Assembly (NCBI GenBank): GCA_030141605.1
Contig: JAQGDQ010000359.1
Span: 175,242 to 239,241 of the forward strand
DNA from: Tubiluchus corallicola
Lineage: Eukaryota; Animalia; Priapulida
Direction: 5' to 3'
Length of the DNA stretch: 64,000 bases
Every line of letters starts with the position of its first letter. The stretch's first letter is position 1. Below, piece after piece: positions 20,436 to 64,000 of the stretch. The position numbers and the translations under genes were made by a program. The notes beneath the pieces were generated by a model. It was not told where the DNA came from. It made no database searches and saw nothing but the letters and a program-made list of their open reading frames with translations.

Positions 20436-21237
20436 AACAATGCATTATGACACATACTAAGTAAATATTGCAATATTTAGGTAAATAAGAACACTACTAT
20501 AAATAAGGAGTGTTTATCCCTAAATTTACAAAACAATTTGATATAGAACAGTAGTTTGTAAACTTCTAGACTAAACATGATCCTCCTAGTAAGAATTATC
20601 AGAGCCAGAAAAAATACATACTTCTCAGAATATTGTACAAAAGAATAAATGCAACTTTCACACATTGGATCGCTAAGTAATTTCGGATCAACGAAAAACG
20701 GAAACAGAGACAGACAGTCAAACTAAGAAGAAAAGCATTCCCTCGCACAACCACTTCCTGATGTGGAAGACAGCACCAACGTCACCGACAACAGTGCAGG
20801 CAGCCCACATAATTTTTGTACATAATGTACCAGCCCATAATTTAAAAGACACCAAACAAGTTAATATGCCGCCTGTCGTGAAGTTTGGGCGTCACGATTC
20901 ACCCGCCGTAAAGAAGCCAATGTGAATTAATTTACGTATAGCTGTAGGAACTGGTTCGAGGAGTTAACCTAGTTAAAATAGGAAGTTACTTGATGAGTTG
21001 ATATGGAACAGAAAAATGTATATTGCGCTTTCGAAAAAAGAATAAATCTAGCGTTATGACAGAAGGAAAAGTTCTCGTTTTTGTTTTACTGTCGCTAAGA
21101 CACCGCCTCATTAAGAAAAAAATCAGTGCATTTCAACAGTTGAGTAGTTACCCTTATCTCAATAAAAATTATAACAAGCAAAATAATTTAATAATATAAC
21201 TAATAATGTTACGAACTAGTGCACACTGATTAAAAAA

Positions 21238-24200
21238 CTATTTTTTATCTCCCAGTTGCTCCACGGCATAGGCATAATTTAACACAGTGACTTCATCAAA
21301 ATGTCTGCCGACTATCATGAGTCCAAAAGGAAGTTTGTCTGGTTCTGATAATCCTGCTGGAACCGATAGAGCTGGATGCCCGGTGGAGTTAAAGATGGCG
21401 GTGTTGATCCTCACATCAAAGGCATTGCGTATGTGTTCTGCAAAGATATTACTCAATTTTTAATCTTCTTTTCGAAGTCTATAACTGTTGTGGAGATCGC
21501 TGGCAACTATTAGAATAAAATAGAACATTGTAGAATGTTCCATTAGAATAATCGTCTTACCTTGTAGAATGTTCTAGAAAGAAACTTCTAGAATATTCCC
21601 TGACACGTTATATAAGGGGAAGCTGGCCGCTGAAGAACACACATGGATTTGCACGGACTCACACTTACACGTTCTCTTGTACACTATATTTTCAGATACA
21701 CTCAAACGTTTTCCAGATTTTCACGTTTACCGTAAACATATCGCGTTCCTTCATACTTTTGTCTTGTAGAATTCTCGCTTAATAAACTAGTTTAATTTGA
21801 CGAAGTGCTTTCTGGTTTTCTCTATGAGCCTTCCGAGAGAAACGAAACACAACAATATCGGCGCATTCAAACTAGCAAGTTTTCTAGTGAGAGTTTCCTT
21901 TCTGGCAGCAGACGCGCGAGTGTGAACGAGTTACTACCACAAGTTATTTCAAACTCTCTGACAGTTGGTGCGAGTTGATTTCTTACGAGCCTAACGCCAA
22001 GGCGAGCTACTCTTGACACTTCTCGCAGCGAATAAAGACGTGAGTGTCAGCTAGCGCTTACTGTCAGAGAGTAACTCGCAGCAAGTTTTGCTCTCTAATT
22101 TGAACATGCTTGCAAGTTATTTGGCGACAAAATTTGCTAGTCCGAACATGCAGTTAGCAAGTGATGTAAAAACATGACTTTATACTAACAATTTGCATAA
22201 ATGTTTGATAGTTGTAATTATTGATCCATAGTAAGTTAGTAACCAACAACCTGATTACGGTTTACATACCAGAAATAGATGCATCTTCTTTTGGTATTTT
22301 TGGTGGTAAGTATGTTGTGGTAGGCATCACAAGGACATTGTATTTCTCAAGAGCCTTGTTGTACTGCTCAGTGATTTCACGCAAAATGTTTTGTCCTTTA
22401 CAGTAAAGCTGAAAACCCAATTCCTCTCGCACATGCTCCGCTGCCAAGATCATCAGCTTCATGGGGTGAGATAAATAGGGTGATAGGGTACTGTAGCTCT
22501 TCCGCATAACTGTCCCCAGAGAAGTTGGGTAATAGCCTCTGTGTCCAATGCCACCTCCTGGAACACAATGGATGATATTATGCCGGTAAATCATGTGGTA
22601 ATTATTTACATGCCGATCATTTACAGTTTAGGTACAAAAATGTGTAGTGTGTTGTCTTAGCAACCGAAATTGAGAATGGCACCCCGAGACTGGTCAGTAA
22701 GTACATGTGTGAACCACTTAGATGATTTGCCCTGGGTGGCTTCATTCGCAGTGCTAATTATGGGTGATTACCTCGTAGAGAAAAGATGTATACATATAGA
22801 GTAATAGTGATATACTACTGCTGGTTCAGTGGCTCAACCTAGATGCATAAGCCTTGATAATGAACAAGGTTGCAGTCTCCAATTTGAATGGCACACACTG
22901 CTGAATTCTGGATTCCGACTTAAAGGATTCCGAATTGTATAAAAATAGTTTTATACATTGACAATTTGGTAAAAAACTGCCCTCAAACAGTTTATTGTTG
23001 TTATGTAAGGGAACAATTGTAGATTGCTTTTGTACAAATGATATATTCTTGCTTCTAGTTTGCATTAGCATCTTAGTTTTAAATACTAGACTGTGAGCAA
23101 TGAGCCGAAATACAACCCACTGGTCTAAAGTTAATTAGTTCTACTACATTTTCATTGTTCTGTGAAATTAGTAATGTTTCTACTGAAGATGCAAAAGTTA
23201 TTACAACAAATTAGAACTGAGCAAACATTTTATTGCTACTTGGAACGAAAATGCAAAATTCCTTATACTTTTTAATTCTGCGCACACTTGTCGAAAAAAG
23301 AAAACTGAGTAGACAGGAGTCTGGCTTCTTCCATGATGAAAAAAACAGGGTTTGAAGCAATTGCACACAACATTTGTTTACAATTGCGTGGTGACCATCA
23401 GAGAACTGATTTTCAATAATCCAAACAGAAAATGTCCAACATTTGCATCATAATATATAAGCAAAATCTTAGAGCAATTGCACCATTTGTGAGAAAACTT
23501 CTTTTATGAAAATTGCATACAGGCAAAAAGTAACCTGGAATTACCTTGCATTTGAATCATCCATTCAGTAAGACCTTGTAAAGCCAGTGGCCCATGTACC
23601 TTTAAAGCTAAAAAATTAAAATTACTCCAATAACATGTACTGCTTACATAGCATCAGGCACGAAAACATAATCCTTCGCAAAATGGCACAATCGCTGAAA
23701 TTACAATAATGGTGCTGCTTTTGCTTCTACTATTCTCAAGATGCAATTCTAAATTCGTAATTTGAAACATCTATTTGACTAAAATATTGTTATTTATACA
23801 CAAAAATTCTCATAAATAATAAACATGAATTAAAAAAGTACCATAAGCATGCTCAGGTATAAAAACCTCTTCTACAACAGCTCCAAGCTCCTTTGTCGCA
23901 TAAACAACAGCATGAACCACCTGTTCTATTTGCTTGTCACAATTTAGGAATCCTTCCATCAAAACTCCCACTTTTATACCTTGTACATCACCTGTAAGCT
24001 AAATTTCTATTAATGAAAGATAATGCAATGTTTATTAATTAAGATCTAGAATTTCTGCATAACTACATGGAAATTCGTTTAACCAGAGGAAATTTTTAAA
24101 CTAAGCAAACTCTTGAATATCATCAGTAAACGAGATTCTAGAAATATTATGGAATGGGTAAAATTACTATGATGCACTACGGTGGCATAAAAGTTTTCAA

Positions 24201-37172: not shown

Positions 37173-39167
37173 TCAGATTCTACTCAATGCATCTACATGT
37201 GGTATCTGATCTCCAGATCTGTGTCTTACTTCAAAATCAAACTGGTCTAACCACAAAACCCACCTAGCTAAGCGACCACTGGGATCTTTAAGTTTTCGTA
37301 GCCAAAGCAAGGATCTATGATCGGTGACTAAGACGAATCTCTTCCCCACAAGATAATGCTGAAACTTTTTGACTCCATTAATCACTGCTAACAACTCTTG
37401 TTCAGTAGTCGTGTAATTTTTCTCTGCATCACTAAATTTCCCTGATGCACAGTACACTGGATGCTCTTGCTTACCATGGCCCTGAGATAGTACCGCACCC
37501 CATCCAGTCTTACTGGCATCTGTAGTCAATATAAATGGCTGACTGAGATCCGGATGACGAAGAACTTCGGTACTTGTTAGTTGTCTTTTCAATTGCTGGA
37601 ATGCTTGCTCACATTCTGGTGACCACAGGAATTGAACATCTTTCTTTGTCAAGTTCGACAGAGGACTAGCTATAGAGGCAAAACCAGGAACAAAATGTCG
37701 ATAGTAACTGCAAAAACCCAAAAACTGTCGTACTTCATGGGCATTCTTCGGCTGCTGCCAAGATTCTACTACTCTGGCTTTCTTATCTTGTGGCATTATT
37801 CCTTCATGACTTAGACGATGACCTAAAAATTCTATTTCAGTTTGTGCCAAAGCACACTTCTCTGGATTTAATTTTAGTTCTGAAATCTCTATACGACTAA
37901 GAACTTCACGAAGATCACTTATGTGCTGATCAAAGGTAGAACTAAATACTAAAATGTCATCAAGATATACTAACATGGTTTTCCACTGAAGACCATGGAA
38001 TATGTTCAGCATAAGTCGTTGAAATGTGGCTGGGGCCTCTGACAGACCAAACGGCAATACATTAAACTCGTAGGTACCATTTTCTGTAATAAACGCTGTT
38101 TTAGCACGAGAACTTGGATCCACTTCCACCTGCCAATAGGCTGCACTCTGATCAAGGCTCGTAAACCATTTCGCACCCTGCACACTAGCTAAAAGCTCAT
38201 CTATTCTTGGTAATGGAAATGTCGACCGCTCTGTCACTGCATTCAAACGACGATAATCTACACAAAATCTATACTTGCCATTTTCTTTTCTCACTAAAAT
38301 AATTGGGCTCGACCAAGGTGATTCACTATCTCGTATTATATGACGTTTCTTCATGTCACTAATCTGATCTGCTACGATGTCTCTCAGGTGAACCTGAGTT
38401 CGGTATGGTTTTTGCTTAATAGGTGGACCACTAGTCTCTATATGGTGCTGTACAATATCTACTCTACCGATTTCACCATCTACTGAAAACACTGTAGGAA
38501 ACTCTTCTAACAATTCAGTGATCTTTTGTTTCTGTGAATCATTGAGATGATCCAACCTTAATTTAGTCTCTAACTTGGATTTCTGATTATGAGCACTAGG
38601 TGATTCTGCTAGAATTGGGACATCTTGACTGCAAACACCAACTTCAATTTCACCTAGAATTTCACCAGCTCTGATCACTACTGGTTCTTCAGATAAGTTT
38701 ACTAGACGTACTGGCAGTGTTTCTGATTTAGCATCAACACAAGTTCTTGCAATGCAGACACCTTGAAACTGTTGTGCACTAGCTGGCTCGATGTACGTGA
38801 CTTGGGTACGCCGTGTTACAAAGTTTCCTATAGGCGGCAATGCCGGCAAAACCATTTCTGACTCAGATGGAATAACTGTAGTTTGCGAACAACGTACAAC
38901 TGCCTTACCACTGTATGTTGTAACGTTCTGACCAGCTAATGTGCATATTCCTCGTTTATAGTCGATGACGGCTTCTGCCCTAACTAAAAAATCCATACCA
39001 AGGATAATTTCATCACTGCATTCGGTAACTATACACTGTGTCACCACTTCAAGGTCGGCACTTACTGGCACTTTTAGTTCCATTAGGCCATAACTCAGCA
39101 AAGAAATTTCTCTGTTAGCCGTGAGAACTGTAATTGTACTCTTATCTTGTCTCCATGGCAAGTTCAA
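37173..39167 (-). pseudogene. Gypsy-1 pol segment: protease C-terminus, reverse transcriptase, RNase H, bounded by in-frame stops
   Basis: ILGMDFL, RFCVDYRRLN, LPFGL, YLDD, TDAS, TDHRSL, DALSR. Confidence 0.93.
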
Positions 39168-40136
39168 CTAGTCAACAAGTAATTTGCTAATCAAGGACTT
39201 CTCAGCCCCGCTGTCTAAAACTGCAAAAATATTACGATTTTCTATTCTTAATGAGATGTATAAAGCCTTTTCTTTTTCTGTTTGACAAGATCTTCTATTC
39301 AAGGTGGCACCTACTGCTGTTGACTGTGCTGACTCACTACGTATCTTTGAGCAATTTGCTGCTATGTGTCCCACGCTACGACATGTTCTGCATTTGGTGT
39401 AGCAGACATCTGCTTTACGACCAGGGAGAGTACATCGAGTACACTTTTCTCTCAGTTGTTTACGTTCCACAACTACGGACTCTCGATGATCTCTAGCTAA
39501 TGACTTATTACGACACTCTGCTGCGCGATGCCCTTCTTTGTGGTATTTAAAACAAGTCATTCGACGAACATAGTTGCCTCTCCCACGCTCATTTATTGAT
39601 TGTCTCTGTTTGTCAACAACCTCACGACTAATTTGCATTTTATGTAATTTGGCAATAGCTCCCTCCAGTGTAGTGATATGTGCATCATAAAATCTAGTAC
39701 GCCACTCTGGTTTTAAGCCTTCAATAAATTTTTGCACGCAAAATCTCTCTATAACATTTCTGTCGGTTATCTCAGGATTTGCTGACTTAAACAAGCGAGT
39801 TAATTCATTGGCATAGGCATGCGCACTTTCATCCTTTTTCAAATTTCTCTGATTGAATTCAGTCAGATATAAACGCTGGGATTCCTCTGGGGTATAAACT
39901 CGCTTAAGTGCATCAACTAACTCTGTATACGTATTTGGCACTTCACCATCTTGGCGAGTTAACCCGTCCATAACATTATCAGCCTGCCCAACCAACAATG
40001 CTGGCAGTACTTGGAATTTCTTTTCATCATTCCAATCATTGGCTACTGTAACTCGCTGAAAACGATTTATAAATCTTGAAAAATCGCTTGTGCCATCAAA
40101 TTCTGGTGGCTGCACAACATTTGACGCCTGTGCTAT
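39168..40136 (-). pseudogene. Gypsy-1 gag with three CCHC-type knuckles plus protease N-terminus
   Basis: PEFDG...RF...NDW; CRTCRSVGHIAANC; LDSGA. Presumed start codon reads ATA near 40136; TAG falls inside the protease. Confidence 0.88.
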
Positions 40137-41127
40137 GCTGCTAGATTGCTACTGACTTACTCGTATTACTATTACTGACGAAGTTTCAAAACTGATAGAC
40201 GTAGCTTATCCCACCGCTGTATGTTACAGTTTGTAGAGCTGACAAACTTCTAACTTTGTTTAAAAACACATTTATTAAAACTGCTTTTATAAGAACAAGA
40301 GCTTTTAACAAAATAAAGCAACCAATTTCCTCGCCATGGCGTTCTGCTAATCTGTACCCTGTCCTTCTTTTTCTCTCCTCTGCTCCCGTCTTCCTAATTT
40401 GCCCAACTAGTTCACTAATCAAGCCATATTGCATCTATGACTCAAGTACAGCTTAGTCAAGCGCAACATTATTAGTATCATCATCATCATCATCATTATT
40501 ACCGTATTTTCCCGTGTATAAGAGACCCTTTTTTGCACACTTTAACCTCAGCACACCCTCACATATTCCACTAACTACCATACCAGACAATTCCAAACCA
40601 GTTGATAAGTCCATTGACCCTCCTTCGACTGCATCAGCTCCACCCAACCCAGTTATACCACTACGTCGTTCAACTCGGCAGAGGACAACTCCTCAGTGGC
40701 ACAAAGACTTTGATATGTCTGGTAATTTGGTCAGTTATCAGTCTTCGACGTATGCTACCTCCGTCCAAGACTTAGGGGGGGGGGATAGAGGATCTTGAAG
40801 ATTTCAGCATATGAAGAGCACCCGTATTGCTGTTTGCCAGGAGGCAATTCTTAACACATTTAACGATAAGAACTCCATGCAGTGTCGAGCAGATGTTTAA
40901 CATTTAGAACGGTATATTATTTGCAGTTATACTTTTGTGATTAAAGGAACAATGCTTAAATTAGTATAATTCGAAACATTTATATTTGTACTTATGCGGT
41001 ATGGCAGTATTATATGTAATTATTTTGTTGTTGTTATTTCAGCCTGATCATTGCTGCAATATCATAAATAAACCACTTTGATTGATTCAGCAAAAACTTC
41101 CATAGTTATTTATGATCAGGCGGAAGA

Positions 41128-43026
41128 ATGCCAATTGTTCAATGCCCAATTACTGGCTGCAATTATGCAACAGAGGACTTGTCGGAGGCTATCGTTCTCG
41201 AACTCCTGCAAATACATCGTGGTAGTCACACCACGAACACAGAGGCGGCACCACCCGCACATTCTGCTCCAACTGCGAAAATTGAAAAAGTGAAAAGGCC
41301 TACTGTATCTGCCGCCGGTACCAGCGAAGAATGGGCATATTTTACCACACGTTGGCAAGAATACGTAGATGCCACTGGTATCACTGGTAAAGACAGAGTA
41401 ATTCAATTATTAGAATGTTGTGATGAAACGTTACGTAAAGATCTCACTCGTTCTGCTGGTGGCAGTCTCAGTGGCAAAGCAGAAGATGTAGTTCTTAATG
41501 CTATCAAAAAGCTCGCTGTTCGCGTTGAGAACACCATGGTGGCTCGTGTAGCATTGCATGATATGCGACAAGACCGTGAAGAACCTATCCGTGCATTCTG
41601 CGCCCGTCTACGAGGACAAGCCGGCATCTGCAATTATGAAGTGAAATGTCCCGAGTGCGACACCAGTGTCAGCTATACCAACGAAATAATTCGTGACTGT
41701 ATCACACGCGGCATCGCAGATCCAGAAATCCAACTGGACATTCTCGGCGACAAAAATCAAGTCATGGAAATCGAAGAATTATTAATGCTAATTGAAAGCA
41801 GAGAATCTGGAAAAAGATCTGCTTCAAAACTCTTCGATACCCACAATGCTGAAGCAGTGCGTAGCTCATACAGACGAACAACAAGCAATCTAGCCAAAGA
41901 TAAAACATCTGAACCATGCAGCCACTGTGGAAGGCACGGTCATGGAAGTGGTTCTGATTTTCAATTACGACAGGACAAATGTCCAGCTTTCGGCAAAACC
42001 TGTACATATTGCAGTCGCAGAAACCATTTCGCTCCGGTATGTAGATCTAGAAATAAGCCAAAACATGCTGTTCCAGACCGTGACAGAGGTCGTGAACAAT
42101 CCACCTCACTGGGTGAACAGGGAGCTGTGTTCGATACATTGTGTTCATTTACACCACACGTACATGAAAAAAATAGCCGTCGTACAGTTCCCCTTAGTCA
42201 TCACCTATATGACCAGATGTGTAATAGTTGGCTACGCCAACCATCGAAGCCTCAACCATTTGTTACACTGCGCATGTCAATAAACCCAAGTGACTACACA
42301 GCCCTTGGTTTTCGCTGTGGCAGACAACCAAATTCTTGTATAATTTCAGCAATAGCAGACACCGGATGCCAGAGTTGCTTGTGCAGCCTTAAAATCCTCA
42401 CTCGCATAGGCATATCAGAGCAACATCTCATACCTGTCACCATGCGCATGCAAGCTGCAAATGATCGTGGAATTAACATCCTTGGCGCTGCTATCCTAAG
42501 ATTCACTGGTACATCTACGGCTGGCAAACAACTGGAAACCAGGCAGATCGTATATGTCACCGATACTTCAAACAAATTATACATTAGCCGTGAAGCTTGT
42601 ATTGCACTCGGAATGATCACAGAAAGCTTTCCAAAGATTGGTGAGGTGTGCAACACGCTAGAGATATCATCATCAAACAGCACTTCATCTGAGACACATG
42701 ACATATCCAAACCCCAACAAAACAGTAGTGGTTTGACATCTGAGTGCCACTGTCCACGACGACAGCTGCCACCTACACCACCCTCCCAACTGCCATTTTC
42801 ACCAACGCAAGAAAATTTGCCAAAACTGAGACAGTACCTCCTTGACACTTACAAGGCAAGCACATTCAACATATGTGAGCACCAACCTCTCCCACTTATG
42901 GAAGGGCCCCCTTTGAAACTCATGGTGAATTCTGATGCCACCCCGTGGCACATCACAACCCCATCCCAGTCGCCTTGCATTGGCAGAAACAAGTCAAAGC
43001 AGATATCGATCGCGACGTCCACCTAG
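41128..43026 (+). CDS. Gypsy-2 gag-protease (632 aa as read; joins pol by a frameshift near 42942)
   Basis: N-terminal CPITGC...H finger; CSHCGRHGH...C and [14 protein letters not shown] knuckles; ADTGC protease site. Confidence 0.92.
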
Positions 43027-46000
43027 GAGTCTTGGAACCTGTCCCCATTGGCGAACCTGTCACTTGGTGCCATCGAATGATTGTATGCCCCAAGAAAAAC
43101 GGCCAACCCCGCAGAACTGTTGACTTTCAAGCCCTAAATGTTCATGCCACAAGAGAAACCCACCACACCCAGTCACCATTTCTGCAGGCAAGATCTGTAC
43201 CCCCAAACATGAAGAAAACGGTACTTGATGCCTGGAATGGCTACCACAGTGTCCCAATCCGTACAGAGGACCGCCATCTTACTACGTTTATCACTCCGTG
43301 GGGCCGATATCGCTACAAAACAGCCCCACAGGGCTACATTGCTTCGGGTGATGGTTACTCAAGACGCTATGACGAGATTGTGTCACACGTACCCCGTCAC
43401 ACAAAATGTATTGATGACACACTCCTCTGGTCACCTACAATCAAAGAAAGCTTTTTCCAGGCAATAGAATGGCTTGACATATGTGGCCGTCATGGCATCA
43501 CTCTTAATCCTGACAAGTTCATCTTTGCTGAAGACACAGTTGAATTTGCAGGATTTGAAATTACACCCAATAGTGTCCGCCCTTGTCGGCGATATCTCCA
43601 AGCTATACTAAAATTTCCCACTCCAAAAAACATCACTGATGTTCGATCTTGGTTCGGCGTAATAAACCAAGTTAGTTATGCTTTCAGTATGGCTGACCGA
43701 ATGCTTCCATTCCGTGCACTCCTGAAACCCGGGACCCCATTCACATGGAATGCACAACTAGATGAGATATTTAATGAGTCCAAGGCACTCATTGTTCAGG
43801 AAATAGAAGACGGTGTTCGAATTTTCGATAAAACACGGCCGACATGCTTGGCCACTGATTGGTCAAAGTCAGGCATTGGCTTCTGGCTGCTCCAAAAACA
43901 CTGCAAATGCCCCAAATCAACTCCTTTTTGTTGCCGTACTGGGTGGAAAATCACTCTTGTGGGAAGCCGATTCACCACACCAGCAGAATCACGATATGCC
44001 CCAATTGAAGGTGAAGCCCTAGCAGTGGCAGATGCCCTTCAAAAAGCTAGGTACTTTGTCCTGGGTTGTACAAACCTGACTATTGCAGTGGACCACAAAC
44101 CATTGCTCAAGATCTTCAGCAACAGATCCCTTGATGACATGCCCAACCCTCGCCTTAGGAATCTGAAGGAAAAGACGCTCCGTTTCAAATTCCAGGTCAT
44201 ACATGTCCCTGGAGCAAAACATCGAGCTGCAGATGGCATCTCTCGACACCCGTCTTGCCCTGGCCATGCTGGTGATATGCCTTTGCCTGACGACATTGCC
44301 ACAATTCGACAGGACACTAATATTACCTTGCCAAACCTACCTACTTTCTTTTTGGAAGGTATTCGTTGTCAGGAAACGCCTTCAGATTCCTTTGAGACAT
44401 CCTTAATATGTTCAGCTGCCACAAAGCTTGCAAACTTCAAATCAGTGACATGGGATATGGTCCGAGTTGCTACAACAAGTGACACCACCATGAACTTATT
44501 AAGAGACATCATAGAAACTAACGTGCCAGAAGCACGTCAGGAGTTCCCAGCTCCAATACGTGAGTATTACCAGTTCAGGGAACACCTCCACACCATCGAT
44601 GGTGTTATTCTCTATAAAGAACGCATCGTTATTCCCCCATGCCTACGTGACACTGTGCTTTCATCACTCCATGCAGCACACCAAGGGGTCTCATCCATGA
44701 TTTCTCGTGCAGAATCATCAGTATTCTGGCCAGGCATAACGACAGCCATATCGGCACTTCGAAGTCGTTGCCAAGAATGCAACCGTATTGCACCCTCACA
44801 ACCGGCAGCACCGCCCGTTCCCCCAGTTTTGCCGGTATACCCATTTCAGTGCATCTGCGCTGACTTCTTTCATTACAAGGGCGTCTACTACCTCGTTGTT
44901 GTTGACCGTTATTCCAACTGGCCCATTGTCGAACGTTCTCCAATTGGGGCCACTGGTCTCATTGCCTGCCTCCGCCGAGTTTTTGTCACTTACGGCATTG
45001 CTGAGGAACTGGCCTCAGATGGTGGCCCAGAATTTATTTCATTCCAAACACGCCAGTTTTTTTCAGACTGGGGTGTCCATCATCGTTTCTCTTCGGTTGC
45101 CTTTCCTCACAGCAATTGTAGAGCCGAATTAGGCGTTAAGACCGTTAAGCGCATGATTATGAATAATACTGGCCCCCAGGGAGACCTTAATACAGACTTG
45201 TTTCAACGAGCAATCCTGCAGTACAGAAACTGCCCAGACAGAGATACCAAACTCTCACCTGCCCAGTGTCTGTTTGGCCGCCCTATACGAGACTTCATCC
45301 CTATAATACCCGGTCGCTACCAACCTCATAACACTTGGCAGGAATCACTACTAGCCCGAGAAGAAGCCTTGCGTAACAGACACATGAAAGCATCGGAACG
45401 GTGGACTGAACACACAAAACGCTTACCCCCACTAGTTGTTGGTGACAAGGTACATTTACAAAATCAGACTGGGAAACATCCTACCAAATGGGACAAGTCT
45501 GGTATAGTCATTGAAGTCCGTCAATATGACCAATATGTCATCAAGGTGGATGGCTCGGGCAGAGTAACACTTCGGAATAGACGTTTTCTTCGGAAATATG
45601 AACCAATTCATCCACCACGCCCCAGTATCTCTATTGATACTGACCTTGCTTACAATGACAGATGCTTACCAGTTGAGAAACCTGCAACATCAACCACTTT
45701 GCCACCTAAAACAAACCAACGCCCTAATAATTCAACCTTAGTGTCACCCAAACACATGGATTTCAAACAAACAGACAAACCTGTTGGACCAGAGGACCCT
45801 CTCCCTAACCTCAGCACACCCTCACATATTCCACTAACTACCATACCAGACAATTCCAAACCAGTTGATAAGTCCATTGACCCTCCTTCGACTGCATCAG
45901 CTCCACCCAACCCAGTTATACCACTACGTCGTTCAACTCGGCAGAGGACAACTCCTCAGTGGCACAAAGACTTTGATATGTCTGGTAATTTGGTCAGTTA

Positions 46001-46049
46001 TCAGTCTTCGACGTATGCTACCTCCGTCCAAGACTTAGGGGGGGGATAG
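42945..46049 (+). CDS. Gypsy-2 pol: RT, RNase H, integrase (1034 aa open)
   Basis: [34 protein letters not shown]...CQEC, ADFF, SDGGPEF, RAELGVK. The ORF runs through the PPT and stops on the first TAG of the 3' LTR. Confidence 0.95.
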
Positions 46050-46475
46050 AGGATCTTGAAGATTTCAGCATATGAAGAGCACCCGTATTGCTGTTTGCCA
46101 GGAGGCAATTCTTAACACATTTAACGATAAGAACTCCATGCAGTGTCGAGCAGATGTTTAACATTTAGAACGGTATATTATTTGCAGTTATACTTTTGCG
46201 ATTAAAGGAACAATTCTTAAATTAGCATAATTCGAAACATTTATATTTGTACTTATGCGGTATGGCAGTATTATATGTAATTATTTTGTTGTTGTTATTT
46301 CAGCCTGATCATTGCTGCAATATCATAAATAAACCACTTTGATTGATTCAGCAAAAACTTCCATAGTTATTTAGAGGGTATGCATTCAATGTCACAGTCT
46401 GCGACAATGTTTGAAACCAGGTTGTGCTCCTATCAACGTTTAATTATGCAGTCCACTTTTAAATAGAGTTCTAAG

Positions 46476-50180: not shown

Positions 50181-51254
50181 CCAATAAGATTTCCTTAACG
50201 TACTGATAGCTTTGTACTTGAACTAAAACAGTAGCAGAAATTTCTTACCAACGTCATGGGAGCTTAGATAGTCTGCAAGGAGAAACATGAACTGCTCTTG
50301 TCCAAAAAATAATTTGATAGCCGAATCCTAGCTGACTTTCATTTTAGATTATTAAACCAGTTTTATCTCAAATTTTACGAAAGTTGTAGAGACAGTTTTG
50401 CAATTAAAAATAGTACTAAAATAGTAATAATAAGTATTGCTGAAAGGATTCATTACATGTCCTGTAACTAGCACAACATTGCCTGATTAGTTCTAACTGC
50501 GCGCTAAAACGCAGAATTATTAATCTCCCTATGAGCTTGGGTTTTCATAGCATCAATTGTCTGCGCTTGTACAAGTTAAATGCTTTAAGTACTGTCAATC
50601 GAGCTAAGCCGACATGAGCGTATCGATCCAGAACATCTCAAAGACGATTAACTGGATTGATCCCGACTCTAGTTAGTTCAGCTCTGGAATTAACAAGCTC
50701 TCGCTCGTCTGGGTTTGTGTACACAGGCGAAATTGTTCAACAACCATTTCCAAATAGAGAAACAAATGTTTGTACACTTATTAAAACGTGCTGCCGTGTC
50801 TTTGCATCGGTGAATTTATTGTGTGTTTCGCCTTTGTTAAATTTTTAGCAGAAATTTTTAGTTTTTAATAAATAAGAAAGGAAAGTTTAAAGATAGAAAC
50901 TTATTTAGATATTTACTGTTTTGCCGGTAGAGGACGTTAAAAGATATGTCTTACGTACGCGATGCTCTTATGTAGTACTAGTCTACTGCTCCGAGTAGCT
51001 GCTTCAGTCAGCAATTAATTTGCTCGTACGTAAAGCCTAACATATTTCACACTAGAAGGAGAGAGAAAGGGCGTGTTTTTAATTAATTATCATCCTCTTT
51101 TAAAAGCAGTGATGTAGTTAATCAACTTAGCAGACGACGTGTTAACTATTTAACATAACAGTTACTGAAAAGCGTTGAATCATTTTCGAAAAGAACTCAT
51201 TTTGCTCCATAAAGTTAATAGTGTTTATTGTTTATAAACGTCGCTTTAGACGCT

Positions 51255-51965
51255 GTTGTTTTTCACGTGTCTTGTCCATTGTTATTCACGTGTCTTGTCC
51301 ATTGTTTTTCACGTGTCTTGTCCGTTGATTTTCACATGTCTTGTCCGTTGATTTTCACGTGTCTTGTCCGCTGTTTTTCACGTGTCTTGTCCGTTGTTTT
51401 TCACGTGTCTTATCCGTTGTTTTTCACGTGTCTTGTCCGTTGTTTTTCACGTGTCTTGTCCGTTGTTTTTCACGTGTCTTATCCGTTGTTTTTCACGTGT
51501 CTTGTCCGTTGTTTTTCACGTGTCTTATCCGTTGTTTTTCACGTGTCTTGTCCGCTGTTTTTCACGTGTCTTGTCCGTTGTTTTTCACATGTCTTGTCCG
51601 TTGTTTTTCACGTGTCTTGTCCATTGTTTTTCACGTGTCTTGTCGGTTGTTTTTCACGTGTCTTGTCGGTTGTTTTTCACGTGTCTTGTCCGTTGTTTTT
51701 TACGTGTCTTGTCCGTTGTTTTTCACGTGTCTTGTCCATTGTTTTTCACGTGTCTTGTCCGTTGTTTTTTACGTGTCTTGTCCGTTGTTTTTCACGTGTC
51801 TTGTCCATTGTTTTTCACGTGTCTTGTCCGTTCTTTTTTACGTGTCTTGTCCGTTGTTTTTCACGTGTCTTGTCCGTTGTTTTTCACGTGTCTTGTCCGT
51901 TGTTTTTCACATGTCTTGTCCGTTGTTTTTCACGTGTCTTGTCCGTTGGTTTTCACGTGTCTTTT
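51255..51965. repeat. 23-bp minisatellite (about 31 copies), most units containing CACGTG
   Basis: Unit cacgtgtcttgtccgttgttttt. Confidence 0.95.
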
Positions 51966-52599
51966 TTCGTTTCCCGCAGTTTTTAGCTGTCGATTCATTA
52001 TTTCAAAGCTGTACCAATTATTGCGTAACTGGCTATTTTTAACAACGCAAATATTTTCAAAAATCGATATTTGTTTTCTTCGACATGGCTATACAGCAAT
52101 ACTGAAGATGGCTCGTTATTATGCTAAACAACAAGAAAATGGCGGCTATTGTCTCAACTTGTGCTTTAAATCTTTGATACGTTTACTCTTTGCTGACAAT
52201 TCTGCTGAAGAAACGTGGTCACGTGACACGCGTGTTGTGTGAAAATTGCATTTTATTCATTTCGTGTTTGTAATTGCCCTAGAGTCTCATACGCCTGCAT
52301 CGCTGGCCAAGCAGAGATGAAGTTATTATTGCCGACGATTTCAGAACAAATGGAAAACTGATTTCAGTCAGTCTGTCAATACACCGAAGATTAATATTTT
52401 GTTTATATAAGTTGGTCCTCGGAAAGGTTTTTGTTGCACAGTGGAGACAACGTACTTGAAATGGGTTGCAACTTTTGTTGGACTCGATGAGCATGCTGCT
52501 TTGTGCTGCTACACAAAAGTACTTAAACTACAAAAATGTTTGTAAACGACCTGGCTTTTGATTTAGCATGCAAGTATTCTAGAAACTGCATGTATATTA

Positions 52600-54315: not shown

Positions 54316-55143
54316 GCAACGTGGCATATTGTGAAAAACACACTCAAATTCATCAGGTTGGCTCAAATTTGGTTCAAAACGAACTTGCACTTCCGCTTTG
54401 AGACATCATAATATTGCAAAAATTCCAATTTCTTTTGACTTAATTTTCAACTTTGATAATGACATTTGTGTCATGCAAATAAAAAGCATGCATGTTGATT
54501 CCTAAAGTCCGGCTCTTTCTTGTATAAGAAATACTTACGTTATTCCAAGTTTTCTACCGTATAACTTGCTTTTTGCGCATTCCAAAGTGTCTATATCAGC
54601 TTTTTCTGGAACACCCTGTAGAAACAGTCAAATGTGGCATACGAACTGACAAACGAATCGAAAAGCATCAATAGTCTGGTCCATTGTGGGACAGACAAAT
54701 GCGACCTAAGTCATCTTACAAAATAGTTGGTAATTGTACACTCCCAGTTGGAAACACACAAATATTCGATTGATACAGACAATGTTGTCTCTGCTTTTAA
54801 ATATCTCACTTGACATGCGATATCTCTAATAATTCATGCTGCATCTAGAATGAACAACATCACATTTAGCCGATTCATAGTCATACCCTTGATTCCTTGT
54901 CGAGGCTTATAGAAAATGCCCTCCTTTTACGTTCCGAGTAGCACTTCTACCATTGGTCATTGATGGTTAAATTTAACAAAAAAATTTGACCTTTGCGAGG
55001 AGGGAAATGGGCGCCCCCCTCTGATATCAAGGTAAGCACTTGTTTCAAACAGACAACGCAGGCAGGCAAAAACTAATGCTTCAGACACACGGATTAATCA
55101 GAACTCTTAAATGCTTTTATTAAAACTTTATAAATTGAAAATC

Positions 55144-55198
55144 ATTGGAAATCAGTTGGGATTTTCCCGCACAGGTTCGAATCCTGTCGACTGCGCCA
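55144..55198 (+). pseudogene. 3' 55 nt of a tRNA-Ser including CCA (extended PBS / reverse-transcribed primer), not a functional tRNA gene
   Basis: ATT GGA AA TCAGT T GGGA TTT TCCC GC ACAGG TTCGAAT CCTGT CGACTGC G CCA: variable arm and T arm pair, G discriminator, no 5' half. Confidence 0.9.
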
Positions 55199-55203
55199 AA
55201 ATT

Positions 55204-55526
55204 TGTAGTGTTTTGTTTCTCTCGGAAGGCTCGTTGACAAAACCAGAAAACACGTCGTCAAACTAAACTAGTTTATTATGCGAGAATTCTACAACACAAA
55301 AGTATGAAGGAACGCGAAATGTTTACAGTAAATGTGATAATCTGGAAACGTGAAAGCAAGAAAGCGTATCTGAGAATCTGAGAATACAAGAGAATAAACT
55401 ACAGCGGCCAGCTCCACCTTATATATCAGTGCAAAGGAACAATCTAGAAATAGAAAGTTCTAGAAACTTCTACAAGGTAAGAAGATTGTTCTACTATAGT
55501 ACAGAATATTCCAGATCTCCACAACA
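55204..55526 (-). mobile_element. LTR (323 bp), same family as 21486-21854
   Basis: Minus strand TGTTGTGGAGATC...GAGAGAAACAAAACACTACA with TATA and AATAAA; PBS TGGCGCAGTCGACAGGAT follows after 5 nt. Confidence 0.85.
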
Positions 55527-56524
55527 GATACAAAATAACACAATTCTCTTTGTAAAAAATTTAACACAAAACAGTCTGCTAAAAAGTAGTTCCCAACTCC
55601 TCCGCCTTCCTGCCAAATAGTTCCACATTAACAAAAAAGGAAGAAATTTGTTGTTTCCTACGTTCCTCGCGACAAGGCCTCTCTGTTGAAGTTCCACAAG
55701 CCAATATATTAGCGTAGTAAGATCATCATCTCGCTACTGACCCGCATTTTGCTGTACAAAATAATTTAATGTGGACGTGCAGAAACCGAAATTCACACAG
55801 GGGAATCACGTATAACACAGGTCAGCTATGAATTATACATGAATGGCACAGATGATCCAAATTTGGTTAGGGGAATCCAAATCCCGTAAAGATGGTAAAG
55901 ATAATGAATCTGGTCAAGGATTTTGACGCCAGGGCGTAGAGCTCTAAAACTTTGCTTCCTCTTACAACAAACTAAAGCTTTAGTAGGCCATCCCAAAATG
56001 CGAAATTCAAAAATAGACCATACTTTAACAAATTTTTAACTGAGGGGGTGGAACCTTTAGTGGAAAAATAAACGCAAACACCACCCACGCAGAGAAACAT
56101 CTTTCGATTCTTTCGATGATCTAATGCTTCAGTATCTTAGCTAATATACAAGCCTATATTACTGTATTTTGCTTAAATGGTAAGCAAGCACTCTTCATTA
56201 ATAAAGCTTAAAAATTCGTCTTGAAATCACCACTTGCATGCTGACTTATTGCATAAAGAGATTGCATTAGCAGTAACGTTGTATAAAACATGTCAATTTA
56301 AACTGCTGCAATGACCTTTAGACGCAGCCATTTTAACGGTAAATCGTTTGAAACAAGTTTCGACAATCAGAGCATTCGTAGCGCACTGTTCCCTAACTAA
56401 GCATAAGTTTTTGGTGTTCCAGTGGTGCACACTGGGTATGGCCATGCAGTGACACCTTACAGCGAATATTTTAAATTATTAAGAATTTTCTTTTCCTCTT
56501 ACGTAATTTTTTCAAGCAGGTAAT

Positions 56525-57776: not shown

Positions 57777-60700
57777 TGTGACGCCGTGTAATAACTAAAT
57801 CAGGACGTTAAGAAATCAGAGTACTGTATTCAGGGTTCTCGAGCGTTTCCGTCACTTTTATATGCTAAATCTACAGGATAATCATTCATTTGTGTAGGCT
57901 ACGTGAATCCGTGTCACTGATGAAACACTTGTGTGCACGTGCAAATTATTTAATCAGAACGAAAACGGAACTAAAAGCTAATATTTAGATTTAGAATTTA
58001 ATCAGTAAAACAACAATAGCAAATTAAATTGATAACAATTTCGAACAATACCTAATTCCCCCAAAGTAACGTTGGCCGGCTACGCTTCTGTCTCTCATCA
58101 GGCTTCCGGATCTATCAACCACGCTCTTGAGTCTCCAACCATACGGCATCGGCTTTTCATCTCCAGCAGTCAGCCACGTCCTCGCCAGCAACTCTTTGCC
58201 AATGGTCACCAATCCAGCCTCTGCATGGACCACGCTTTAAAACTGCTCCAGCAATCCAGCGGTTGAACTCGTACCTGGTTGCCTCGGGATTGAACTCTCG
58301 CCTGGTTGACTCGGACTTCCAGTAATAAAGCCAGATATCGTCCTTTTGCAGGGTGACAAACAGAACCTTCAGTTCAGACAAACAGACAGACCATTGGTCC
58401 AAGTAGAACTGGTCCACGACTGGTTTTCCACTACTATTCAACGAGAATTTTAGTCCTATTCTGCAGGTAGAAATATGGTTACCAAACACTTGCTTCTTGG
58501 AATGTCAAGACAGTGTCATCACAGCAAACAACGAATAAACAAAAGTAGACAAAACCATTGCCTTTATGACAAATCATCTCACTGCATACGAGTACCATTA
58601 AAGACAGGTTCACACCAAACTTGGTGTTCAGCCATATAAAATAACCTCAGGATGTGGACTAACCAGCAAAACTCCACCACCCTGTAACTTTGACAGTCAG
58701 AACATAACTAGTGTAAAACACGAACTCTGTAGTAAGATCCCAAAACAGGTTGAAGCCATTTGGTATTCGAATTTTCAGGTAACCTAATTACAGGTAAGCA
58801 GAGAAATAAGCGGCCAGAGCCATCTAGTGTCAAAATCTTACAAAAACACACAATGTAATATAAGTTTAAATAAACAGTGCAATAAATCAATCAGGTACTT
58901 AGATCATTATTTATGCGCACGCAACAACATACGAAAGATATATCAAAATAGGTGTTGCGACAATGATGGGTGGTATAACCGATCATCACATAGCATCTCT
59001 CTCCTTTTAAAACTCTGAAGGAGTTTTCACAACATAGCGACACCTATATTGAAACGATTGAAGAAAATAAAAGCTAAACAATGATTTGCTAACTAAATGG
59101 GCTATCTTAATTACTCTGAGAAGCAACTTCAATCAATACTGATACAAAATAAATCTACGAATAACACAATAAACGACTTTACTTCTGCCATTTCACTTTT
59201 AAAGGCTTTATGTTGTTTAATTAAAAAAACAATTTCTTCGTATAAAACTATCAAAATTAGGCAAAATTTATAGGCGTGAAAGTGCATCCGCCACAACATT
59301 CATTCGTCCCGGAATATTCTCCACCGTGTAAGAGTATTCCTGGAGAATGAGCAACCAGTGACACAACCGGCGGTTATTACGCTTAATGCGAGGAAGGGCC
59401 AACAAGCTGCGCTGGTCAGTTCGGATAGTAAAATGCCGCCCTTCCAGGAAGTATCTCAACTTCTCCACACAGTAAACAACTGCTAAACACTCCACTTCTA
59501 CCACACTGTAATTACGCTCAGTAACAGTTAATTTTCTGCTGAGGTCTGTTATAGGTAGTTCGCCATGTTCACTTTGTTCTTGGGATAGTACCCCACCTAC
59601 ACCACTCAAAGATGCATCAGTAGTCAGCATGAAAGGCTTCATGAAATCTGGAGAGTGCAATACAGTGTCGGAGCCAAGGCAGTCTTGCAATTCCACAAAA
59701 CTCCGCTCGCAGGCTTCTGTCCACTCAACTTTGGTTGGAGCGCTTTTCTCAAGTAGCTGAAAAAGAGCAGCAGCCTTGGTACTAAACATAGGAATGAACC
59801 TACGGTAGAAGCCAACAAGTCCCAAGTAGGCCCGTACTTGTTTCTTGTTTTGTGGACGTGGGAAGTTGTGTATGCGTAGAATCTTGTTGGGTTGTGGCCA
59901 AGTATATTCCTGCAGTACTCGCTTAGTAGTTTTTCCAATGCCTAAATGTCCAGCCATCTTATTATCATGTGCCAGGGAGAGCACCTCCAGTCTCCTTGTC
60001 TTAGGCACAACCAGTAGTTCTCGTGGTTCTAGGCTAGGACGCTCACATGCCAGGTAATAAAGTACTCCTTCACGAAGATAGTAGCCTTTGCCTTCTTTCC
60101 TCACAATTTCTTCAGTGCGTGCATTGTCGCGTAAGTTCCTTAAAGTTACATCATCTACTTGTTCTTGGTGTAACTGTGATTTACTGAGCACAGTTAGGTG
60201 CATTTGGTTTTGCTTTGACTCGTGCTCAGTCAGTGGAGGTGCTTTGATTCTGTCTTGCAAAAACTCTTGTTGGAGGGTCTTGTCTCTTTTCTCAAGGTTT
60301 TGCAGTTTCGCAGCTTTACTGCGTGTAACAACTAATGCCGTGTGCAGCTTGTCACCACTACTGTTTTCATCCTGCTTCATAGCATGCTTTTTAAATTGGC
60401 AGGAGGAATCCATGTTGGCCACAGTAGCTGTTGAAGCTGGTTTCGGTACACACTGGAAGTTCTTACTCCTCTTTGCCGGGAATGGAGTAACTGCCGTCCG
60501 AAAGTCATTACCAAGTAAGAAGTCAACTGGAAGGTCACCAGAGACAGCCACTGTCAAATACCCACTGACCATCGGACTTTCAACCTCCGCAATAGCCATG
60601 CGTACTTCCTTGGAATCTCCATGTACACACTTAATCGTCCTGGTTGACTCATCAACATATTGCTCTGGCCTTACCAAATCTGGGTGAACAAGGCTAGTGC

Positions 60701-63700
60701 ATGCCCCAGTGTCGCGCATGCATTTCACATTCTTGCCATTCACAGATGCCCAGCAGCAATATTCATCTTCAGAAGATGCAATAATGTTGCGCAACTTCTT
60801 TGTGGTTTTTCTTGAACCACCTTCCTGGGTCTTCTTAGCATCACCTTTAGCTAAAAAATTCCGACCCATCGTGCTTCTGCCTTTCCCGGTGGCTTCAGCA
60901 CCTGCCATGCTTCTTCTGCATTGATTTCTTTTATGTCCCAACTCGCCGCAGGAATAGCACTTCACATTAGATCCACTATACGTGCTTCTTCCTCTTGCTA
61001 AGCTACTACCATCGTGCATTGGCTGCTTGAATCCTTTCTTAAATGTGTGAGGTTGCATGACTTTTAGGCCACCCTGTATCGACATCACAGATGCTTGGTA
61101 CAAGTCTGCTTTTTCCACAACATCATCGAAGGAATGAAGATCTTGCCTCCGGACCCATTCACACATGTCACGTGACATCAGTGTTAAGACTTGTTCCTTA
61201 CAGACCAATTCCACAACTTTATCTACAGAGTCAGCATCTTCTGCATTTCTGTACTCATTGTAGGCACGAACAAGTCTTCTGCCAACTTGCTGAAAAGTCT
61301 CATTGGCCCTCTTTTTTATAGCACGAAAACGTTTCAAGTAGCTCTCGCTGGTTAATACATATGCTGCCAAAAGTGCTTTCTTCACAGCATCGTAGTTGCT
61401 CATTTGCTCAGGAGGTATTTGGTGAAAAGCAATGGAAGCTTTCCCGGTGAGTGCAGGCCCTAAAGATGCTGCATATACGTCCTGAGGAAGCTTATTTGCA
61501 GCTGCAGTTGATTCAAACTGACTTAAGAAATCGTCAATGTCTTCAGCGTTTTCATCAAAGACCCTCATTTTGATACGCTGGATGGGTGCATGCAATTGCG
61601 GGTTAACAGGAGGGGAAGGGTTTGCGACCTGTAATAAAGTGGGTGCGATCTCAATTCGTGCAAGCTCGGCACGCAATTTTTCAAGCTCAACCCGTTCCTG
61701 ATGTTCAAGTTGCTTAATACGTAACTCTTTGTCCATCTGCATTTGCATCTCCATCTGCTTGACAGCTCGACGCTCTTCGCTGCGTAGCTTTTCCAGTGTA
61801 ATCATAACTGAATACCTCTCTGAGGGGGGTAATTGCTGCATTCCGTCAGTAATGTCATCTACCATAAATGACAAGTCGGGCGGAGGTGTGTGTTCTAACC
61901 TCGTTGCCACAGTTGGCTTCCTTTTCACGCCACCTGAAATAGGGTTCACGGGAGTTGCTGCATTTAAATTAGTTTCAACATATGTACCCCCGTCCAGGTC
62001 CGCATCACCAAGGCCTTGAATTGCTTGTGTTAGCGCAGGTTGCGTCATATTCAAAGGAAGCTGAGCTTGTAGGATAGCAGCTATTAAAACAGGTTTAGTC
62101 GCTGTTGAGGCAACTGTGATCCCGCATTCAGCTATAATTTCTTTTAGCTGTGACACTTTTAAAATATTTAACTCGTTTTCAGTGTATGCGTTTGCTGCCA
62201 TGGTAATTTACCGTTTCGTTTTATTATTAATTTAATAAGGTTAATACAGCAGTCAAATACTATGTGCAATTGTATTTACCTTATAGTATTAGATTCTATG
62301 TAATTAATTTTTTTGCAAAGTATTTATTTGCGTTTTGTTTCGTTTTAACTTTGCTATTACACTTGTGAAAATTTATTCACCACTCACGTGGTTTCTTTTA
62401 CTCTTCTCTCACTCTGTACACAAGCAAATTGCTCTGGTTACATACAGCTAGTACTGTGCAAAATAAGTCCCGAACCGAACAGGAAGTTACAAGCCGTTCA
62501 ATATATTACTAGGGCTCACCAATTCGTAAACAAGCTTTTGCGTCGCATGCACTTCACAGTCAGACAATGTGACCTAGTTTACCTATAGTTCGAAATCTCC
62601 TACTGCAATGAAACTACTAACTATTTGCGCAGAGAAATTTATACCTACAGCACGGTCAACGCAAGTGTCAAAAGTTCTAAGCTTACTCAGTAGAAATATT
62701 ATATTATCAGTTCTGCAAAGGGCAGAGATGCTATTTTTTTCAACAATAAACAGAATAAATAATCTGCACAGCGGTTTCATTCAGTGGCAGGCCTTAATTA
62801 TCCCACCGCTGCCACCAAATTGTGACGCCGTGTAATAATTAAATCAGGATGTTAAGAAATCAGAGTACTGTGTTCAGGGTTCTCGAGCGTTTCCGTCACT
62901 TTTATATGCTAAATCTACAGGATAATCATTTATTTGTGTAGGCTACGTGAATCCGTGTCACTGGTGAAACACTTGTGTGCACGTGCAAATTATTTAATCA
63001 GAACGACAACGGAACTAAAAGCTAATATTTAGATTTAGAATTTAATCAGTAAAACAACAATAGCAAATTAAATTGATAACAATTTCCAACAATACCTAAT
63101 TCCCCCAAAAGTAACGTTGGCCGGTTACGCTTCTGTCTCTCATCAGGCTTTTGGATCTATCAACCACGCTCTTGAGTCTCCAACCATACCGCATCAGCTT
63201 TTCATCTCCAGTAGTCAGCCACGTCCTCGCCAGCAACTCTTTGCCAAACGTCACCAATCCAGCCTCTGCATGGACAACGCTTTAAAAGTGCTCTAGCAAT
63301 CCAGCGGTTGAACTCGTACCTGGTTGCCTCGGGCTTGAACTCTTGCCTGGTTGCCTCAGACTCCCAGATATCGTTCTTTTGCAGGGTGACAAACAGAACC
63401 TTCAGCTCAGACAAACAGACAGACCATGGGTCCAGGTAGAACTGGTCCTCGACTAGTTTTCCACTACTATTCAGCGAGAATTTGAGTCCTATTCTGCAGG
63501 TAAACATATGGTTACCAAACACTTGCTTCTTGGAATGTCAAGACAGTGTCATCACAGCAAACAACGAATAAACTAAAGCAGACAAAACCATTGTCTTTGT
63601 AATAAATCATCTCACTGCATACGAGTACCATTAAAGACAGGTTCACACCAAACTTGGTGTTCAGTCATATAAAATAACCACAGGATGTGGACTAACCAGC

Positions 63701-64000
63701 AAAACTCCACCACCCTGTAACGTTGACAGTCAGAACATATCTAGTGTAAAACACGAACTCTGTAGTAAGATCCCAAAACAGGTTGAAGCCATTTGGTATT
63801 CGAATTTTCAGGTAACCTAATTACAGTTAAGCAGAGAAATAAGCGGCCAGAGCCATCTGGTGTCAAAATCTTACAAAAAACACACAATGTAATATAAATT
63901 TAAATAAACAGTGCAATAAATCAATAAAGTAATTAGATCATTATTTATGCACACACAACAACATATGAAAGATATATCAAAATAGGTGTTGCGACAATGA
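57777..64000 (-). mobile_element. Gmr1-like Ty3/gypsy element 3, internally deleted; 3' LTR 58990-57777 (1214 bp), 5' LTR from beyond 64000 to 62821
   Basis: TGTGA...TCACA LTR; 18-nt tRNA-Leu PBS TGGTGGCAGCGGTGGGAT (62817-62800); PPT AAAAGGAGAGAGA near 59008-58996. Confidence 0.94.
59268..62201 (-). CDS. Gag-protease-(integrase Zn-finger stub)-RT connection-RNase H fusion, 977 aa
   Basis: CYSCGELGHKRNQC; RDTGA...LLGND; AHDNKMAGHLG...TWP joined to QPNK...FPRPQNKKQVRAYLGLVGFYRRFIP; TDAS, TDQRSL, ADALSR. No YxDD and no DDE core. Confidence 0.92.
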   Translation of the reverse strand: MAANAYTENELNILKVSQLKEIIAECGITVASTATKPVLIAAILQAQLPLNMTQPALTQAIQGLGDADLDGGTYVETNLNAATPVNPISGGVKRKPTVATRLEHTPPPDLSFMVDDITDGMQQLPPSERYSVMITLEKLRSEERRAVKQMEMQMQMDKELRIKQLEHQERVELEKLRAELARIEIAPTLLQVANPSPPVNPQLHAPIQRIKMRVFDENAEDIDDFLSQFESTAAANKLPQDVYAASLGPALTGKASIAFHQIPPEQMSNYDAVKKALLAAYVLTSESYLKRFRAIKKRANETFQQVGRRLVRAYNEYRNAEDADSVDKVVELVCKEQVLTLMSRDMCEWVRRQDLHSFDDVVEKADLYQASVMSIQGGLKVMQPHTFKKGFKQPMHDGSSLARGRSTYSGSNVKCYSCGELGHKRNQCRRSMAGAEATGKGRSTMGRNFLAKGDAKKTQEGGSRKTTKKLRNIIASSEDEYCCWASVNGKNVKCMRDTGACTSLVHPDLVRPEQYVDESTRTIKCVHGDSKEVRMAIAEVESPMVSGYLTVAVSGDLPVDFLLGNDFRTAVTPFPAKRSKNFQCVPKPASTATVANMDSSCQFKKHAMKQDENSSGDKLHTALVVTRSKAAKLQNLEKRDKTLQQEFLQDRIKAPPLTEHESKQNQMHLTVLSKSQLHQEQVDDVTLRNLRDNARTEEIVRKEGKGYYLREGVLYYLACERPSLEPRELLVVPKTRRLEVLSLAHDNKMAGHLGIGKTTKRVLQEYTWPQPNKILRIHNFPRPQNKKQVRAYLGLVGFYRRFIPMFSTKAAALFQLLEKSAPTKVEWTEACERSFVELQDCLGSDTVLHSPDFMKPFMLTTDASLSGVGGVLSQEQSEHGELPITDLSRKLTVTERNYSVVEVECLAVVYCVEKLRYFLEGRHFTIRTDQRSLLALPRIKRNNRRLCHWLLILQEYSYTVENIPGRMNVVADALSRL

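Follow-up and report, generated by a model that had tools for sequence, protein, structure and literature searches.

A long terminal repeat joined to a partial tRNA-Ser copy in the genome of Tubiluchus corallicola, a probable fossil of an over-read primer

The stretch of DNA that we analysed (64,000 nt of the priapulid Tubiluchus corallicola; hereafter the window) is eukaryotic and AT-rich. On the minus strand of the locus studied here (Table 1) lies a long terminal repeat (LTR) of 323 nt, with a TG start at 55526 and a CA end at 55205-55204. After a 5-nt spacer it is followed by 55 nt (55198-55144) complementary to tRNA-Ser, from position 76 back to position 31. Read in the tRNA sense, the CCA lies at 55196-55198, A58 at 55180, the anticodon GGA at 55147-55149, T32 at 55145 and A31 at 55144. 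This arrangement, including the GGA anticodon and T32, had been described in a first-pass annotation made from the letters alone, and it is borne out by the coordinates and by contigs that span the junction. Because 55148-55195 matches the nearest eukaryotic tRNA-Ser gene in our scan at 45 of 48 nt, the 52 nt from 55147 to 55198 are not a chance resemblance.

Table 1. Coordinates of the LTR-tRNA fusion, of the repeat that it interrupts and of two controls
Feature	Positions	Strand	Remarks
Left part of the interrupted host repeat	54900..55134		Left boundary approximate; contig depth, joints 55106/55128 to 55526
Filler at the junction, belongs to the insert; repeats 55145-55154 in tandem at 9 of 10 letters	55135..55144	-	
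Over-read extension (putative), complement of tRNA-Ser 58 to 32/31 (T arm, variable arm, anticodon loop)	55144..55180	-	Single-locus depth
tRNA position 32, T here; C in 52/52 homologous genes	55145	+	Likely m3C32 misread; from homologues
tRNA position 34, G here; the 52 homologous genes have A (50) or C (2)	55147	+	Likely inosine; from homologues
Middle base of the variable loop (e2/47d), reads T; the host gene has another base, all 52 homologous genes have C	55163	+	Likely m3C misread
Canonical 18-nt primer binding site, complement of tRNA-Ser 76-59 including CCA	55181..55198	-	Ordinary family copies stop matching here
5-nt spacer, LTR end to primer binding site	55199..55203	-	
LTR of a high-copy family, TG...CA	55204..55526	-	AATAAA lies 79 nt and a TATA-like motif 227 nt ahead of the primer site
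Right part of the interrupted host repeat	55527..55690		Right boundary approximate
Control: solo LTR of the same family, 4-of-5 five-base target duplication	21486..21854	+	75% over 331 nt
Control: unrelated Gypsy-type element, primer site of 18 nt, not extended	62800..62817	-	

Upstream of the LTR start at 55526 there was no purine tract (5 purines in 15 nt). Near the LTR we found no element interior and no second (3') LTR, the host repeat resuming at 55134, and no target duplication was found flanking the insert at 55135-55526. The first-pass annotation had already noted the lack of an interior, a purine tract and a target duplication. The tRNA copy at 55144-55198 holds positions 31-76 only and lacks the 5' half with the A box. 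Because the A box is lost, the copy cannot be a SINE. The half-tRNA was called neither by ARAGORN, which found 0 tRNA genes in the window, nor by an Rfam search of the window, which gave only 2 chance matches (E 0.14 and 0.96). Folding of the 55-nt copy was uninformative (z -0.61).

The fusion of the LTR with the tRNA-Ser copy at 55144-55526 is real. Its LTR-tRNA junction is crossed by one 156-nt contig of short-read run X2 and by overlapping contigs of run X1. These two runs are of one sample, which may be the source of the window, and all of the junction support comes from that sample. Run X3, from a second study, gave no cover of 55125-55180 and also lacked the contig of the host tRNA gene described below; it shows neither presence nor absence of the fusion.

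The empty site was read from paralogues of the interrupted host repeat and not from an orthologous allele. Contigs of such paralogues in X1, X2 and X3 join 55106-55128 to 55526-55528, and the few letters in between agree with the left flank up to and including 55134 and, from 55527 on, with the right flank. Because the flanks abut in the paralogues, the insert comprises 55135-55526, with neither duplication nor loss (one-base ambiguity). This is the outcome of the empty-site inspection proposed in the first-pass annotation, which had overlooked that the insert extends 10 nt past the tRNA copy. Adjacent 10-mers repeated in this way occur at 9 of 43,638 window positions, and the 10-nt duplication at the junction suggests capture by end joining. 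Since the insert runs on to 55135, T32, T33 and G34 all lie within it; they are not chance bases of the flank, as the same annotation had feared for G34 and T32.

The LTR family is plainly abundant: contig depth summed over the LTR body was about a million in X1, compared to 135-195 at single loci, although this sum is not a copy number. This depth and the second copy at 21486-21854 support the identification as an LTR. All six ordinary primer-site contigs (X1, X2 and X3; two studies) matched from 55181 only, i.e., over 18 nt. In each, the match ended just before A58 and the contig then entered a common interior, of which about 30 nt were visible as loose ends. The tRNA match of the fusion passes position 58, whereas the family matches stop at 59, and the contigs of the extension itself were at single-locus depth (134 and 193). 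As ordinary copies match over 18 nt only, the family does not share the extension, and the comparison of primer-site lengths suggested by the earlier annotation, in which a filter hides some contigs, places it in the fusion alone. The control primer site at 62800..62817 is one that we take to be for tRNA-Leu.

Three Gypsy-type elements lie elsewhere in the window. The one at 34869-40470 (minus strand) has LTRs that are 98% identical and a primer site of truncated appearance; its gag-pol is in one frame, which two stop codons interrupt. At 40543-46373 (plus strand) the repeats are 99% identical and have no TG...CA ends or obvious tRNA primer site; the pol frame enters the right repeat and the first ORF, of 636 aa, has no Pfam match. 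The element at 57777-64000 (minus strand) has a SCAN domain in gag and an integrase zinc-binding domain before RNase H, most of the reverse transcriptase is apparently absent from its 979-aa frame, and its direct repeats of at least 1.2 kb are 94% alike. Pol homologues of a neighbouring element stood at about 65-73%, and the few that were named came from mollusc, sea urchin, anemone or symbiont-labelled assemblies. A tRNA-derived SINE-like sequence with A-box and B-box motifs lies at 27668-27800, and minisatellite arrays lie at 51117-52100, 19413-20567 and 15181-16649 (units of 23, 36 and 105 nt).

The contigs also allowed a comparison of the copy with a host tRNA gene. A 32-nt contig of exactly 55164-55195 (depth 370 in X1) is common to the two, and it has two successors with 30-nt overlaps: one is the fusion (CCA, spacer and LTR) and the other is the gene, which after G73 runs into a T run without CCA. 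The depth sharing this 3' 32-mer is about one gene's worth. As a fusion-only contig ends at 55193, the 30-nt overlaps put the difference between gene and fusion exactly at 55163. We had foreseen this difference as a third signature before the contigs were checked; the first-pass annotation had missed it. The comparison covers the 3' part of the host gene, and for the anticodon with I34 and for m3C32 we relied on 52 homologous genes.

These homologues were obtained by a scan with a 27-base T-arm/acceptor pattern, which gave 66 metagenome loci and 3 loci in prokaryote assemblies, 69 in all. The 52 gap-free 82-nt genes (11 distinct sequences) have C32 in 52 cases, A34 in 50, C34 in 2 and the variable-loop C in 52; none ends in CCA and 50 have a T run. 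Eleven loci (L011, L017, L025, L028, L030, L035, L036, L046, L048, L067 and L068) were left out of this count as cut, gapped or degenerate. Among homologues that share the variable arm of the window copy, the nearest is L004, a CGA gene; this and the single gene's worth of depth on the 32-mer speak against the AGA reading. The 3' 27-mer is different in each of seven neighbouring TGA/CGA genes. The earlier view that the CCA is not gene-encoded holds both for the host gene and for the homologues. The earlier modification reading gains the variable-loop base at 55163, which differs from the host gene itself; for an AGA anticodon with I34 and for m3C32 it leans on the homologues. Eukaryote-type tRNA-Ser genes also stood in prokaryote genome bins (L067, L068 and L069), likely on contaminating contigs. 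In L025 (380-480, tRNA sense) the two halves of a tRNA-Ser(AGA) stand in reversed order, the 3' half first and the 5' half about 16 nt downstream of it, as in a circularly permuted tRNA gene; ARAGORN makes no call in this region.

The modification m3C is usually misread as T. It is known at C32 and at e2/47d of Ser tRNAs (PMC7969016; PMC11417395), and inosine 34 is read as G at about 100% (PMC8062790). On the other hand, mim-tRNAseq detected no misincorporation at C47d of human Ser-AGA/CGA (PMC8062790), in contrast to HAC-seq and zebrafish data.

Six of the 69 loci end in CCA, and each continues with 2-5 nt and TGT; among the 63 non-CCA loci, which served as control, 10 did so. Three of the six (L008, L038 and L066), alike at 97-99.8% over 827 nt, represent a single insertion, which is likely inherited, being shared by the three records. 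Together with L040, L045 and L026 this gives n = 4 independent outside events, and their spacers, end points and flanks differ. The LTR-like calls in these records rest on the CCA-spacer-TGT layout and on AATAAA/TATA motifs rather than on full-length records. The scan pattern fixed A58, so the outside events necessarily carry A58. Two patterns run against viral contigs gave 0 matches, as did a pattern specific to the tRNA body of the window in the metagenomes.

The variable-loop C was altered in all four outside events (G, G, T and T) compared to 1 of 57 neighbouring positions (rough p 1e-6); with the window included, it was altered in 5/5 events and in 0/52 genes. All three gap-free events that reach position 34 (the L008 group, L045 and the window) have G34. 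Position 32 is T in the L008 group and in the window, and A in L045. L040 reads TT-GGA with a 1-nt gap, which is ambiguous and equally readable from a TGA gene, and the copy in L026 ends in the variable arm. A non-CCA fragment, L048, kept A34 and has three variable-arm changes, including the variable-loop C. As L008 has further mismatches at 13, 23 and 26, two of them in CpG, decay contributes to its changes; the G26-to-A of this group lies within CpG and was not counted as evidence of m2,2G. The junction of L045 carries a 13-nt inverted copy of its own LTR.

Two of the outside insertions have layouts of their own. In L008/L038/L066 (about 352-430) the primer copy is near full length, from about position 9 to CCA, with the A-box and B-box regions kept and pointing into the LTR complement. 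In L040 (126-827) two LTR-like stretches, about 80% alike, stand head to head, joined via a partial primer site and the tRNA copy; a fold-back or a recombination between two family copies may account for this.

What process could have produced the fusion? The tRNA part is almost certainly a copy of the mature primer, and that primer was very likely the AGA isoacceptor with I34. The fusion as a whole is probably a plus-strand strong-stop cDNA that ran past m1A58, with three modified bases miscopied, and was end-joined into a chromosome break. That the capture did not involve integrase is also probable. An over-read plus-strand strong-stop DNA fits the start at the U3 edge, the whole LTR, the missing purine tract, the mature CCA and the match past position 58. 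Normally, plus-strand synthesis halts at m1A58 after 18 nt, while minor products pass it and stop later; for over-extended HIV-1 products, one later stop is in the anticodon loop, at ms2t6A37 (PMC13191261).

Under this reading, plus-strand synthesis would have begun at the U3 edge, which would explain both the exact TG start and the lack of a purine tract. It would have proceeded through U3-R-U5 and the spacer into the attached tRNA and ended 0-1 nt past position 32, the reverse transcriptase having run past m1A58 and likely miscopied the variable-loop m3C, I34 and m3C32. The over-long 3' end would have been unable to make the normal second strand transfer. The last 10 nt may then have been recopied once, by slippage or templated synthesis, while the end was joined to a break, and host end joining would have fixed the cDNA in the chromosome. 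The first-pass annotation had arrived at a strong-stop cDNA that read through A58 and was captured, and this is now supported by the 18-nt site of the family, the CCA-less gene, the empty site and the recurrence. Its proposal that synthesis halted near m3C32 fits the window copy and L045; L008, however, reads on to about position 9, so the stop is not obligatory.

The main alternative keeps the same over-read copy and changes its entry: a delayed second-strand transfer could have given a U3 end competent for integrase, and a one-ended or whole defective element would have lost its interior, 3' LTR and target duplication during or after repair. The LTR does start exactly at TG, as integrase joining gives, and HIV-1 proviruses with 7-54-nt tRNA-Lys3 inserts exist (44 sequences; PMC12657518). 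However, interior, 3' LTR and target duplication are all missing from the locus, whereas a 5-base duplication (4 of 5) does flank the other family copy (21486-21854), and as the paralogue flanks abut with nothing lost, a later deletion would have had to end exactly at the outer edge of the duplication. We consider integrase entry unlikely. Another possibility is that a Ser-CGA or Ser-TGA isodecoder served as primer, or that synthesis stopped at G35, and that T32, T33 and G34 arose by slippage at the junction rather than from inosine and m3C32. The 10-nt repeat there is of the slippage type, a TGA loop with one inserted G gives identical letters, the closest variable arm is that of the CGA gene L004, and an AGA anticodon is assigned to the host gene from homologues. 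This is nevertheless improbable, as 50 of the 52 genes with the same 3' end are AGA and 0 are TGA, the L008 group has the same TT-GGA-AA loop, gap-free, within a copy that continues through the D arm, and the variable-loop change is independent of the junction.

The first-pass annotation had itself offered a TRIM-like family with a heritable extended primer site, here of 55 nt. Extended primer-template pairing and primer over-extension sequences are described in retroviruses (PMC13191261), and the contig filter can hide contigs; the 18-nt end in six of six ordinary contigs, the single-locus depth of the extension (134, 193) and the lack of a second LTR and purine tract nevertheless lead us to reject this idea as very improbable. 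It is scarcely credible that an LTR merely lies beside a tRNA pseudogene or a prokaryote-type Ser-GGA gene with CCA, or that the locus was mis-assembled. Bacterial tRNA genes can encode CCA and Ser-GGA, and the junction was seen in one sample. Nevertheless, the 3' 18 nt of the tRNA part are the family primer site at the family spacing, the tRNA part is missing from the paralogous empty sites, and short-read contigs span the junctions. Furthermore, 185,579 prokaryote genomes gave the 27-mer in just 3 stretches, each of them a eukaryote-type gene without CCA or GGA. The over-read cDNA joined to a break thus remains the reading that we prefer.

Some candidates were rejected outright. A solo LTR made by integrase is ruled out by the missing duplication and by the presence of a primer site, and a tRNA gene or tRNA SINE by the restriction to positions 31-76 and the 0 genes called by ARAGORN. 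A provirus of the HIV type, from delayed second-strand transfer, would have an interior or a 3' LTR after the tRNA insert, and there is none. For a TRIM or Helenus element there are no paired LTRs, the tRNA-like part lies outside the LTR and the depth is that of a single locus.

We lean towards the view that over-read-primer fossils are a common, unannotated class in animal genomes, and that they form an inherited record of germline tRNA modification and of the places where retroelement reverse transcriptase stops in vivo. A single exact pattern, made for one tRNA, yielded 4 independent fossils and 52 ordinary genes, and such copies may therefore be frequent. The recorded modifications would be I34, m3C32, the variable-loop m3C and perhaps m2,2G26, and modification maps could be read from assemblies alone. 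If the fossils are frequent, tRNA modification could be mapped position by position in animals without tRNA chemistry, and insertions that are shared would give ancestral states. The modification m3C at e2/47d has been measured in human and zebrafish, and the variable-loop signature suggests that these invertebrate-type hosts have it too. The fossils would further reveal a leaky m1A58 stop in the germline, and they would mislead tRNA annotation through apparent Ser-GGA and encoded CCA. Near-full-length copies such as L008, with both Pol III boxes kept, could seed new SINEs or TRIMs, and the fossils would be real examples of the tRNA-LTR chimeras proposed as SINE precursors.

Several known systems share parts of this structure. 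Over-extended plus-strand strong-stop DNA is described for HIV-1 in vitro and in TRMT6 mutants (PMC13191261). It likewise reads through m1A58 and stops later, but it is transient and not inherited, another tRNA is involved and the stop differs, that of the window being near 32. In yeast, Ty1 cDNA intermediates are inserted at double-strand breaks (PMC10802722); these captures, too, are LTR-region replication intermediates placed at breaks without integrase signatures. In contrast, the breaks were laboratory-induced, and the accessible text mentions no over-read primer tRNA. The Helenus and Cassandra TRIMs also have tRNA-derived sequence attached to a short LTR element, as a tRNA-like promoter inside both LTRs and as a family trait with duplications (PMC10886601). 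In the window fusion, by contrast, a single copy carries the tRNA part, which is antisense and sits at the primer site, beyond the LTR.

Ohshima and Okada reportedly proposed that tRNA SINEs originate from strong-stop DNA with its primer, in this case minus-strand strong-stop DNA (R-U5 only). The model shares with the window fusion a sense tRNA, CCA and then the complement of the LTR end, whereas in the fusion the whole LTR is present. A search of mainly open-access literature yielded no account of primer copies that are inherited and preserve modifications.

The closest known case is that of 44 defective HIV-1 proviruses with 7-54-nt tRNA-Lys3 inserts, which follow the primer site and come from delayed (aberrant) second-strand transfer, as far as the accessible parts of the report go (PMC12657518). 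As in the window, an LTR and an 18-nt primer site are followed by a reverse tRNA copy that passes m1A58, in chromosomal DNA; the copy is 7-54 nt in the proviruses and 55 nt in the window fusion. The proviruses are somatic and run into the viral interior at a deletion junction. The window fusion, on the other hand, is a lone retrotransposon LTR without interior or target duplication in an invertebrate genome assembly. In the accessible text, the changes discussed for HIV-1 are at 58 (5 of 44) and 54 only and not at inosine or m3C, and a figure of that paper may bear on the signatures (PMC12657518). Over-read primers are thus already known from HIV-1, both in vitro and in these proviruses.
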